Virus record (IMG/VR): IMGVR_UViG_2597489870_000004
Reading direction: 5' to 3' (one strand)
Source: a virus
Taxonomy: Duplodnaviria; Heunggongvirae; Uroviricota; Caudoviricetes
DNA length: 45,587 nt
Below, piece by piece: positions 41,698 through 44,169 of this stretch (within the stretch, counting starts at the first letter, position 1; each line of letters starts with the position of its first letter). A program made the translations under genes and the position numbers. The notes under the pieces are model-generated. The model made no database searches, was not told the DNA's origin, and saw only the letters and a program-made list of their open reading frames with translations.

Positions 41698-44169
41698 ATG
41701 AGTAAAGTCTTTATTTGCGCCGCCATTCCTAACGAACTGGCAACAAGGGAAGAAGGCGCTGTGGCTGTAGCCACAGCCATTGAAGCTGGCGACGAACGCC
41801 GTGCTCGAGCAAAATTTCACTGGCAATTCCTGGAACATTATCCGGCTGCTCAGGACTGCGCTTATAAATTTATTATCTGCGAGGATAAACCTGGCATACC
41901 CCGCCCTGCCCTCGATTCATGGGATGCTGAATATATGCAGGAAAACCGCTGGGATGAGGATTCTGCTTCTTTTGTCCCGGTTGAGACTGAATCCGATCTG
42001 ATGAACGTCACTTTTGACAAGCTGGCCCCTGAAGTACAGAACGCTCTCATGGTTAAGTTCGACACATGTGAAAACATCACCGTTGATATGGTTATTAGCG
42101 CACAGGAATTGTTGCAGGAAGACATGGCAACATTCGACGGACATATCGTTGAAGCGTTGATGAAAATGCCAGAAGTTAACGCCATGTATCCGGAGCTTAA
42201 GCTGCATGCCATCGGGTGGGTTAAGCATAAATGTAAGCCTGGTGCCAAATGGCCCGAAATTCAGGCAGAGATGCGCATCTGGAAAAAACGTCGCGAAGGT
42301 GAACGCAAGGAAACCGGAAAATACACGTCTGTTGTTGATCTCGCCCGCGCCAGAGTCAATCAACAGCACACTGAAAATTCAACAGGAAAAATCAGCCTGG
42401 TCATTGCTGCCATTCATCGCGAATACAAGCAGACATGGAAAACACTGGATGACGAACTGGCCTACGCTCTCTGGCCTGGTGATGTGGATGCCGGAAACAT
42501 TGACGGCAGCATCCATCGCTGGGCAAAAAATGAAGTTATCGACAACGACCGCGAAGACTGGAAGCGTATCTCGGCATCAATGCGCAAACAGCCTGATGCC
42601 CTTCGCTACGACCGCCAGACTATTTTTGGCCTTGTCCGTGAACGTCCGATCGACATTCACAAAGACCCTGTGGCACTGAACAAATACATTACTGAATACC
42701 TGACTACAAAGGGCGTGTTTGAAGATGAAGGAAGAAATCAGAGCGCAACTGATACTCTCTCGTCGCCAGTACCAGAAACTGATGCAGTGGAAACGGCAAT
42801 TCCGGACAACGAAAAAACCGAATGCAAAGTGGAAGTCGAACCATCTGTAGAGCGTGAGGGGCCGTTCTACTTCCTCTTCACCGACAAGGATGGCGAAAAA
42901 TACGGTCGCGCAAACAAACTTTCTGGTCTGGATAAGGCACTGGCTGCCGGGGCTACTGAAATCACGAAAGAAGAATATTTCGCCCGCAAAAACGGTACAT
43001 ACTCAGGTTCACAACAAAATACTGGTGCATCTGACACGACCGCACAACCAGGGCCGGTAAAAGTTACCGCTGACGAAGTAAACAAAATTATGCAGGCAGC
43101 CAATATCAGCCAGCCTGACGCCGATAAGTTGCTTGCTGCCTCTCGCGGAGAATTTGTTGCAGGGATTAGCGACCCGAATGATCCGAAATGGGTTAAGGGG
43201 ATCCAGACCCGCGATTCTGTAAACCAGAACCAGCATGAATCGGAACGGAACTACCAAAAAGCGGAACAAAACAGCCCAAATGCGTTACAAAACGAGCCAG
43301 AAACGAAACAGCCTGAACCAGTGGCGCAACAGGAAGTGGAAAAAGTCTGCACCGCCTGCGGTCAGACCGGCGGCGGCAACTGCCCTGATTGTGGCGCGGT
43401 GATGGGCGACGCAACATACCAGGAAACATTCGATGAAGAGTATCAGGTTGAAGTTCAGGAAGATGATCCGGAGGAAATGGAAGGCGCTGAACATCCACAC
43501 AAGGAGAATACTGGCGGCAATCAGCATCACGATAGCGATAATGAAACTGGCGAGACGGCAGATCACTCAATTAAGGTGAACGGTCATCAAGAAATCACAT
43601 CCACCAGCAGGACGTGTGACCATCTAATGATCGACCTTGAAACCATGGGAAAAAATCCTGATGCCCCGATCATCTCAATAGGTGCAATATTTTTCGATCC
43701 GCAAACCGGAGATATGGGACCGGAATTTAGTAAGACTATCGATCTGGAAACTGCTGGCGGAGTCATTGATCGAGACACCATTAAATGGTGGCTTAAGCAA
43801 TCACGCGAAGCGCAATCTGCCATTATGACCGATGAAATCCCGTTAGATGATGCACTGTTACAATTGCGGGAATTTATCGACGAAAACTCCGGTGAATTTT
43901 TTGTTCAGGTCTGGGGAAATGGAGCCAACTTCGACAACACGATTTTGCGCCGTTCATACGAACGGCAGGGGATCCCCTGCCCGTGGCGTTACTACAACGA
44001 TCGCGATGTACGCACAATCGTTGAGCTGGGGAAAGCCATAGACTTCGATGCCAGAACGGCTATTCCATTCGAAGGTGAGCGCCATAATGCACTTGATGAC
44101 GCCCGTTACCAGGCAAAATACGTTTCAGTTATCTGGCAAAAACTGATCCCGAGTCAGGCTGATTTTTAA
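41698..44169 (+). CDS. Prophage exonuclease (823 aa) with C-terminal DEDDh-type 3'-5' exonuclease domain; full-length counterpart of K-12 ydfE
   Basis: C-terminal motifs DLETMG, GNGANFD and HNALDDA typical of DnaQ-like exonucleases; internal CxxC-x8-CxxC zinc ribbon; position between ydfD and xis. Confidence 0.7.
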   Translation: MSKVFICAAIPNELATREEGAVAVATAIEAGDERRARAKFHWQFLEHYPAAQDCAYKFIICEDKPGIPRPALDSWDAEYMQENRWDEDSASFVPVETESDLMNVTFDKLAPEVQNALMVKFDTCENITVDMVISAQELLQEDMATFDGHIVEALMKMPEVNAMYPELKLHAIGWVKHKCKPGAKWPEIQAEMRIWKKRREGERKETGKYTSVVDLARARVNQQHTENSTGKISLVIAAIHREYKQTWKTLDDELAYALWPGDVDAGNIDGSIHRWAKNEVIDNDREDWKRISASMRKQPDALRYDRQTIFGLVRERPIDIHKDPVALNKYITEYLTTKGVFEDEGRNQSATDTLSSPVPETDAVETAIPDNEKTECKVEVEPSVEREGPFYFLFTDKDGEKYGRANKLSGLDKALAAGATEITKEEYFARKNGTYSGSQQNTGASDTTAQPGPVKVTADEVNKIMQAANISQPDADKLLAASRGEFVAGISDPNDPKWVKGIQTRDSVNQNQHESERNYQKAEQNSPNALQNEPETKQPEPVAQQEVEKVCTACGQTGGGNCPDCGAVMGDATYQETFDEEYQVEVQEDDPEEMEGAEHPHKENTGGNQHHDSDNETGETADHSIKVNGHQEITSTSRTCDHLMIDLETMGKNPDAPIISIGAIFFDPQTGDMGPEFSKTIDLETAGGVIDRDTIKWWLKQSREAQSAIMTDEIPLDDALLQLREFIDENSGEFFVQVWGNGANFDNTILRRSYERQGIPCPWRYYNDRDVRTIVELGKAIDFDARTAIPFEGERHNALDDARYQAKYVSVIWQKLIPSQADF

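Follow-up and report, generated by a model that had tools for sequence, protein, structure and literature searches.

What use has a prophage for a protein that is built like RecE in its middle, ends in a 3'-5' exonuclease domain and has no annealing protein beside it? The question is raised by one gene of the IMG/VR virus record IMGVR_UViG_2597489870_000004, a stretch of 45,587 nucleotides (nt) of viral DNA (Caudoviricetes) that we analysed as a whole and call the window: an intact YdfE-type prophage exonuclease gene, which occupies 41698..44169 on the + strand and runs from ATG to stop in the list of open reading frames (ORFs), encoding 823 amino acids (aa) plus stop. On balance, it is probably best explained as the intact form of the Qin-type YdfE protein, a modular relative of RecE in which the PD-(D/E)XK nuclease has been replaced by a DEDDh nuclease of the DexA/Rv2179c type and which may act as an end-processing accessory. 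The gene is real and already known: its DNA is a 100% match to a gene of Escherichia coli SEC470 (NZ_CP007594.1), the protein is RefSeq WP_000048605.1 ('exonuclease'), the 'exonuclease' profile of PHROG 2082 (phrog_2082) spans it entirely (aa 1-823), and Pfam families are precomputed for parts of this protein family in the protein database (PF16473, as well as PF27430 and PF27432, cited here by accession only). A sequence-only reading of the window had predicted the ORF with exactly this start, stop and strand; GAGG stands about 9 nt 5' of the ATG.

As far as molecular identity goes, we hold with high confidence that the C-terminus is a DEDDh 3'-5' exonuclease, its metal-dependent 3'-5' activity being predicted from sequence and model. 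The domain covers aa 642-813 (43621..44136, +), and the search of Pfam assigned it to the DexA/Rv2179c-like family PF16473 (Rv2179c-like 3'-5' exoribonuclease domain; E 2.4e-67; 226.5 bits, the cut-off being 27; profile positions 2-177 of 177), with RNase_T as a weak second match, that is, to nuclease families and not to a non-nuclease fold. The three motifs that had been read in the C-terminal 200 residues (DxE, GNGxNFD and HxxxxD) are all present, as D646-L-E648, as GNGANFD at residues 740-746 with D746 as the catalytic residue, and as H796-NALD-D801. The corresponding codons lie on the + strand at 43633-43635 (D646), 43639-43641 (E648), 43933-43935 (D746), 44083-44085 (H796) and 44098-44100 (D801), so that the predicted two-metal-ion active site is complete; none of the five residues varies when the protein is aligned with T4 DexA, EcD and enterobacterial homologues of the stand-alone kind, and conservation is 90% or more across a family alignment of 34 sequences. 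In an AlphaFold2 model of aa 380-823 the predicted local distance difference test score (pLDDT) exceeds 90 across most of the nuclease domain, and the best match of the modelled domain in the PDB by Foldseek is T4 DexA (8kel; E 3e-11, template modelling score normalised to target 0.66-0.73), followed by RNase T (about 1e-8) and the oligoribonucleases (about 1e-7). A PDB search by sequence led to the same protein: the sole solved structure found was the 227-aa 'exodeoxyribonuclease' 8kel/8ken, which is T4 DexA; two chains reached E<=1, neither of them Rv2179c. Pfam, residue conservation and fold thus uphold the DEDDh (DnaQ-like) C-terminus of about 180 aa that had been proposed from the letters alone.

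By analogy, the substrate is more probably DNA than RNA, because DexA and EcD, the closest characterised relatives, are deoxyribonucleases (DNases), and because relatives have a DNA nuclease or an annealing domain in place of this domain on the recombination scaffold, as described below. EcD (189 aa) belongs to the same Pfam family and is 38% identical to aa 644-817. Residues discussed for DexA and EcD align as follows: DexA W152 and D169, proposed to recognise 5-hydroxymethylcytosine (5hmC), align with Y766 and K779, the second assignment being less certain since the D169 region is gapped, while D90 of DexA (tetramer-forming; A78 in EcD) aligns with D718, an Asp that is kept, and DexA S87 aligns with P715. 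We considered whether the window protein is EcD itself and rejected this, since at 38% identity the two are paralogues. A protein of 189 aa (MIDTET...TTPFLNI, with Ala as residue 78) is encoded in IMG/VR prophage-like contigs of our collection (L008, L013, L023, L024, L026 and L029); it was found by way of the forward primer given in the supplement of the HREX paper, the reverse primer differing from the gene by one base. This protein fits the published EcD, which would therefore appear to be phage- or prophage-borne as well.

Upstream of the nuclease lies a scaffold of several parts. The first (aa 1-257; 41698..42468, +), which is the part that survives as K-12 ydfE, consists of an alpha/beta domain (aa ~1-100) and a helical domain (aa ~105-222); its first ~250 aa are not RecE-like, in that PF06630 has no match there. 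The second (aa 258-473; 42469..43116, +), delimited from the AlphaFold2 model, BLASTP and the NCBIfam RecE model, is modelled as two domains, one helical (aa ~245-345) and one small and of beta-hairpin/helix type (aa ~385-435), plus a disordered acidic stretch, and is homologous to RecE from aa ~299 on. A RecE-type segment follows (aa 474-625; 43117..43572, +; from BLASTP and the module map), which holds a zinc ribbon and most of the acidic linker. The ribbon, CTACGQTGGGNCPDC, is of the form CX2C-X7-CX2C (C551, C554, C562 and C565; aa 551-565, 43348..43392, +); the motif is identical in RecE and was seen in only 6 of the 49 long family representatives. The linker (aa 566-635; 43393..43602, +) is acidic by composition (aa 561-600 contain 14 acidic residues but none that is basic) and predicted to be disordered, with pLDDT of about 33 in the AlphaFold2 model; the earlier reading had already placed a Cys4 zinc ribbon and a long acidic linker ahead of the exonuclease domain, and both are borne out.

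The likeness to RecE is extensive and stops abruptly. BLASTP aligns aa 299-625 with residues 314-598 of K-12-type RecE (44% identity, E 2.5e-68), and aa 474-621, a stretch that takes in both ribbon and linker, share 74% identity with aa 471-611 of the Rac-SA53 RecE. The NCBIfam RecE equivalog NF007259 matches aa 246-625 with its positions 271-602 of 877, at 285 bits vs a cut-off of 1269, which the protein does not reach. The similarity ends at the start of the RecE nuclease domain, and neither Pfam nor BLASTP found any DUF3799/PDDEXK domain here or any similarity to the PD-(D/E)XK nuclease domains of Rac-SA53 or K-12-type RecE. Given that homology to RecE runs up to the linker and then ceases, the protein is a RecE relative with a different nuclease on the same tether.

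The same scaffold is found with other C-termini. An exhaustive search with aa 1-640 retrieved 246 representative clusters among 1.84 billion, so the family is narrow; the members whose source names were looked up are all enterobacterial. A module map of the long representatives shows two N-terminal types, YdfE-type and RecE-type (with PF06630), that assort independently with several C-termini. The DEDDh domain is carried by the window protein and by representatives P0242, P0248, P0262 and P0366, and in P0248 it follows a RecE-type N-terminus while being 99% identical to that of the window protein. Conversely, P0252, P0318 and P0351 bear the RecE PD-(D/E)XK nuclease on a YdfE-type scaffold (Pfam DUF3799 matches P0252 and P0323). 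Some long representatives have a short tail with no recognisable domain, and others again (P0249, P0256, P0259, P0288 and more) end in a module of ~280 aa with the motif KKSLTDAxKKALSxLGFSADV. Taken alone, this module gives a sub-threshold match to Pfam Rad52_Rad22 (E 0.004), and its profile found nothing meaningful among PDB chains; it does retrieve stand-alone 243-aa proteins of Pseudomonas prophages (E about 1e-65), three of which pass the Rad52_Rad22 gathering threshold and some of which are named Rad52/Rad22 family by NCBI. Since these stand-alone homologues pass the threshold, the ~280-aa module is a Rad52-family single-strand annealing domain.

These fusions of the scaffold to a single-strand annealing protein (SSAP) come from prophages of Klebsiella aerogenes, Enterobacter and Pantoea, where they lie in the early-left region, a short way ahead of xis-int (loci L033-L040, e.g. 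L033:5989-8337); in the K. aerogenes prophages the distance is two genes, so that the fusion gene stands in that same part of the operon. NCBI often names them 'exodeoxyribonuclease VIII' though they have no nuclease domain, which is a misannotation. 'RecE-2' proteins without a nuclease domain are mentioned in a 2025 paper on the recombination modules of lambdoid phages (PMC12315714). A further variant, P0314 (703 aa), is an in-frame fusion that joins RecE, within the zinc ribbon, to the middle of K-12-type RecT, and is apparently a deletion variant of a recE-recT pair.

In the whole prophage, no gene of RecT, Bet, Erf or Rad52 type was detected by PGAP annotation, by a Pfam scan of the unnamed early genes or by tblastn, for which the Rad52-type module and two types of RecT served as queries; the sequence-only reading, which saw no evident recT/bet-type partner, can thus be extended to the prophage at large. 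No recT adjoins the exonuclease gene, which is directly followed by xis. Gam is neither annotated nor detectable by Pfam, bearing in mind that two unnamed early-left ORFs have no Pfam match and that small unrecognised inhibitors are possible. We surveyed partners by tblastn in 92 sequences (88 IMG/VR loci, three annotated loci and the window), a redundant set with many isolates of the same prophages, so that the counts are descriptive. RecT was present at all RecE-type nuclease loci (36/36), and within about 6 kb of the DEDDh cassette neither RecT (0/47) nor a Rad52-type SSAP (0/47) was found; the eight SSAP-fusion loci have no nuclease, and 1/92 sequences matched no module. Even so, it is the gene type as such, and not just this window, that goes without a partner.

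If not by its own annealing protein, how would such a phage recombine? The Chi octamer (GCTGGTGG) occurs 15 times in the window vs 2.0 +/- 1.4 expected, and none of 100 shuffles reaches 15 (maximum 6). Thirteen of the fifteen lie at 29562-38419, in the 9-kb lysis/Q/nin/replication arm adjoining the right cos end, and the others at 43601 and 45417; the terminase genes are at about 24.8-27.3 kb on the - strand. Ten sites are on the - strand and five on the +, and the - strand presumably corresponds to the top strand of the conventional lambda map, which would be the active orientation for RecBCD entering the right end. Related genomes are skewed likewise (top/bottom strand, 9/2 in Tritos and 7/2 in mEp460_ev081), and the median number of Chi sites per 10 kb of flank is 3.1 for DEDDh genes vs 0 for RecE with RecT, in redundant loci whose flanks include some host DNA. 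The lambdoid survey mentioned above defines a class without a recombination module whose Chi sites cluster at the right and number 8 or more in the active but no more than 6 in the inactive orientation, and it finds that RecBCD helps the growth of the prototype phage of this class, LLS, and predicts the same for the rest (PMC12315714). By its lack of an SSAP and by the count, position and presumed orientation of its Chi sites, the prophage fits this Chi-abundant class without a recombination (Rec) module. One Chi octamer lies within the gene itself (GCTGGTGG on the - strand; 43601..43608, -), at codons 635-637, that is, at the junction of linker and nuclease where similarity to RecE ends. It stands 26 nt upstream of the MIDLETMG start of the domain in 44/44 related loci, which are closely related to one another; its conservation may reflect shared descent, or a recombination hotspot for cassette exchange.

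The exonuclease gene is the last of a repressor-controlled early-left operon of the dicBF type, directly before xis and int. The prophage is lambdoid, about 47 kb long, and inserted between potB and potC of E. coli SEC470; on its + strand follow one another a cI-like repressor gene, a DUF1391 (ydfA-like) gene, a small hypothetical gene, DicF, dicB, ydfD, the exonuclease gene, xis and int. The repressor ORF at the head of the region (38997..39635, +) translates into 212 aa with an N-terminal helix-turn-helix and a LexA/S24 peptidase domain; the RefSeq annotation of the identical genome has a 'LexA family protein' here that covers just the final 112 codons (39297-39635). The DicF small RNA gene is at 41002..41053 (+; Rfam RF00039, 76.7 bits vs a gathering score of 48), and the PGAP annotation of the identical record gives dicB at 41228-41416 (+), upstream of ydfD at 41413-41604 (+), which immediately precedes the exonuclease gene. 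Immediately downstream the annotation has the excisionase gene xis (44231-44500, +) and the integrase gene int (44469-45587, +), with potC next in SEC470. The order dicB-ydfD-exonuclease is the same in K-12 Qin, phage Tritos and vB_EcoS-640R1, and ydfE has been assigned to the DicA-repressed dicBF operon (PMC10448788). No sigma-70-like site was found 5' of the exonuclease gene on the + strand, and the counts of promoters and terminators in the region do not exceed those of shuffled sequence.

Elsewhere the prophage bears an IS66-family element, ISCro1 (tnpA, tnpB and transposase; about 18591-21206, -), between the head-decoration and major-capsid genes; because of this insertion among head genes the prophage is probably defective, with its early region intact. 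Genes for tRNA-Arg and tRNA-Ile (30368-30617, -) lie upstream of the lysis cassette and the hokD type I toxin gene (34713-34868, -) in the nin region, cargo that is typical of Qin- or Stx-type lambdoid prophages.

The gene is among the commonest prophage genes in E. coli: it is matched in 4800/5426 complete genomes, with at least 80% coverage in 3533/5426, and occurs at a median of two places per genome and a maximum of ten. In K-12, MG1655 matches only nt 1-767 of the gene (98% identity), as a fragment annotated 'exonuclease, incomplete, missing C-terminus' that adjoins an IS2 transposase fragment and a truncated integrase; the alignment shows an N-terminal stump of 255 codons and then the IS2 remnant, as expected from the earlier suggestion that K-12 ydfE was truncated by an insertion sequence and that the window holds the uninterrupted form. 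Intact copies are also carried by the viable phages Tritos, mEp460_ev081 and HannyBb, and these, together with the 3533 genomes with at least 80% coverage, count in support of a maintained function.

How might such a protein act? After induction or infection it would remove nucleotides from 3' ends, with the scaffold perhaps delivering or tethering the nuclease, and it would work without a phage annealing protein, recombination-dependent growth probably being left to host RecBCD/RecA. The absence of an SSAP and of a Gam annotated or detectable by Pfam, here and in the viable relatives, together with the many Chi sites in what appears to be the correct orientation, suggests that the phage probably relies on the host enzymes; given this apparent reliance, the most economical role would be that of an accessory that trims or blunts 3' ends, or else a function in degrading DNA. 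By such comparisons a RecBCD-accessory or end-processing role is possible, and we propose it tentatively. Wider still, and in our estimation rather unlikely, is the idea that the N-terminus of RecE and YdfE is a general phage 'recombination platform' with swappable effectors, that DEDDh would mark the phages that feed ends to RecBCD-Chi, for example by blunting 3' tails for RecBCD loading, and that the junction Chi would be the hotspot of exchange.

Several observations weigh against an end-processing accessory on a RecE-like scaffold. The association of Chi with lack of an SSAP rests on few genomes and on redundant loci, and a structure comparison of the ~470-aa, four-domain scaffold returned no informative match, its role in delivery being one that we infer. 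The Pfam family of the nuclease domain bears the name of an exoribonuclease. Homologous recombination is usually inhibited by DnaQ-type 3'-5' exonucleases, and the lambdoid survey explicitly leaves isolated DnaQ-type nuclease genes near int out of its recombination-module genes (PMC12315714). YdfE is listed as uncharacterised, and transcripts that reach ydfE, past ydfD, were not detected in K-12 (PMC10448788). There is also a weak terminator-like hairpin with a 5-bp stem at 41642-41655 (+), within the 93 nt that separate ydfD from the exonuclease gene; this hairpin and the undetected K-12 transcripts suggest that expression of the exonuclease may need antitermination.

Chief among the alternatives, and in our view unlikely, is an anti-phage or superinfection-exclusion nuclease that would resemble EcD ('HREX'), degrade incoming phage DNA with modified cytosines and be kept because it protects the host. 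EcD digests the 5hmC-containing DNA of T4 and protects E. coli from T4 (PMC12153337), and DicB, encoded in the same operon, is reported to be protective against phage infection, as far as the accessible part of the source shows (PMC6832061); E. coli prophages carry the gene extremely often, a single genome holding as many as 10 copies, and PADLOC gives a weak match to a CRISPR-associated DEDDh model (E 1.7e-5). PADLOC found no strong system match, however, and made no defence-system assignment, and the proposed 5hmC-recognition residues are not both kept (Y766, K779), while the Asp whose loss defines the EcD-like dimeric state is retained (D718). The gene should moreover be silent in the lysogen, since it belongs to a repressor-controlled operon and has no promoter-like site of its own; K-12 points the same way, as transcripts reaching ydfE went undetected there (PMC10448788). 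The RecE scaffold and the SSAP fusions of its relatives point to recombination instead. Together with the zinc ribbon, and with the fact that relatives carry a DNA nuclease or an SSAP in place of the domain, they also argue for DNA as the substrate, and hence against a 3'-5' exoribonuclease like Rv2179c that would trim or degrade host or phage transcripts, including the processed polycistronic dicBF RNA. We consider such an activity distinctly improbable. It would agree with the Pfam description ('3'-5' exoribonuclease Rv2179c-like domain') and with the presence of RNase T and oligoribonucleases among the structural neighbours; RNase T digests DNA too, and fold neighbours do not discriminate between the two substrates. 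The closest relatives by sequence are the DNases DexA and EcD, and Rv2179c does not appear among the PDB chains at E<=1. RNA of the dicBF operon is indeed heavily processed (PMC10448788), but K-12, which is without the domain, still makes DicF.

Could the protein be the exonuclease half of a classical two-component phage recombinase whose annealing partner is encoded elsewhere? The gene does sit where exo/bet or recE/recT would be, part of its product is RecE in sequence, 'exodeoxyribonuclease VIII' is a frequent annotation for it, and the several lambdoid prophages typical of an E. coli genome could supply RecT or Bet in trans. Still, no SSAP occurs in the prophage or in the 47 related loci, whereas RecT is adjacent in 36/36 RecE-nuclease loci, and 285 bits are far from the RecE equivalog cut-off of 1269; by this score and the missing SSAP, a nuclease half of a RecET-like pair is largely refuted. 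Polarity is a further obstacle, for 3'-5' digestion would destroy the 3' tail that annealing proteins need, as in lambda Red and RecET, and we regard this possibility as very remote. Hardly more credible is a decaying, functionless remnant of a defective prophage, for which one could cite the IS66-family element in the head-gene region, the truncated K-12 copy and the many database entries that are partial: the frame is intact across 823 codons, the catalytic residues are invariant in the family, and full-length copies at 90-100% identity exist in 3533 genomes and in plaque-forming phages. An intact RecE-like protein with an exchanged nuclease, probably acting on DNA ends, is the reading that we retain.

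The gene call itself matters little, given that the gene is catalogued and found in most E. coli genomes, and the 2025 survey had already noted DnaQ-type nucleases in the lambdoid early-left neighbourhood (PMC12315714). Its interest is that no role has been assigned to a gene so common in E. coli prophages, despite its place in the well-studied dicBF operon; a search of the literature returned nothing functional on this protein. What may be new, in the sense that we did not find it stated in the literature searched, is that one scaffold carries a nuclease of either polarity (5'-3' or 3'-5') or else a Rad52-type SSAP, that DEDDh loci strictly lack a partner, and that a Chi site sits at the junction; the cassette-swap picture, the partner absence and the junction Chi are leads, not demonstrations. 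A practical consequence concerns nuclease-less relatives, which are being named 'exodeoxyribonuclease VIII'. The function of the RecE N-terminus is a long-standing question in the RecET recombineering literature (PMC11611040), and the natural cassette swaps, together with their link to Chi-rich phages without a recombination module, offer a concrete way to test it.

Among known systems, Qin ydfE of K-12 is the same gene in the same operon (ydfA..DicF-dicB-ydfD-ydfE-int), of which K-12 keeps the first 255 codons whereas the window copy is complete. The nuclease domain shares Pfam family, fold and DEDDh residues with T4 DexA, its best PDB match by sequence and by structure, and with EcD, but these are stand-alone proteins of 189-227 aa, while the window protein, of 823 aa, has the domain at its C-terminus, and the residues for 5hmC recognition and for the dimer/tetramer switch differ (Y766, K779, D718). 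The founder of this Pfam family (PF16473), Rv2179c of Mycobacterium tuberculosis, is a bacterial exoribonuclease of the stand-alone kind. The lambdoid phages of the 2025 survey include some with DnaQ-like 3'-5' nuclease genes within their recombination modules, or sporadically next to int, as well as the Chi-rich class without a module (PMC12315714); the prophage shows both the nuclease near int and the features of that class, and the accessible text of the survey describes no fusion to a RecE scaffold, nor does it state if its panel included this gene type. Closest in overall design is RecE of Rac, which has the homologous middle region, the zinc ribbon, the acidic linker and an early-left position near xis and int, but which ends in a 5'-3' PD-(D/E)XK nuclease where the window protein has a DEDDh 3'-5' domain, a first ~250 aa that are not RecE-like, and no recT.

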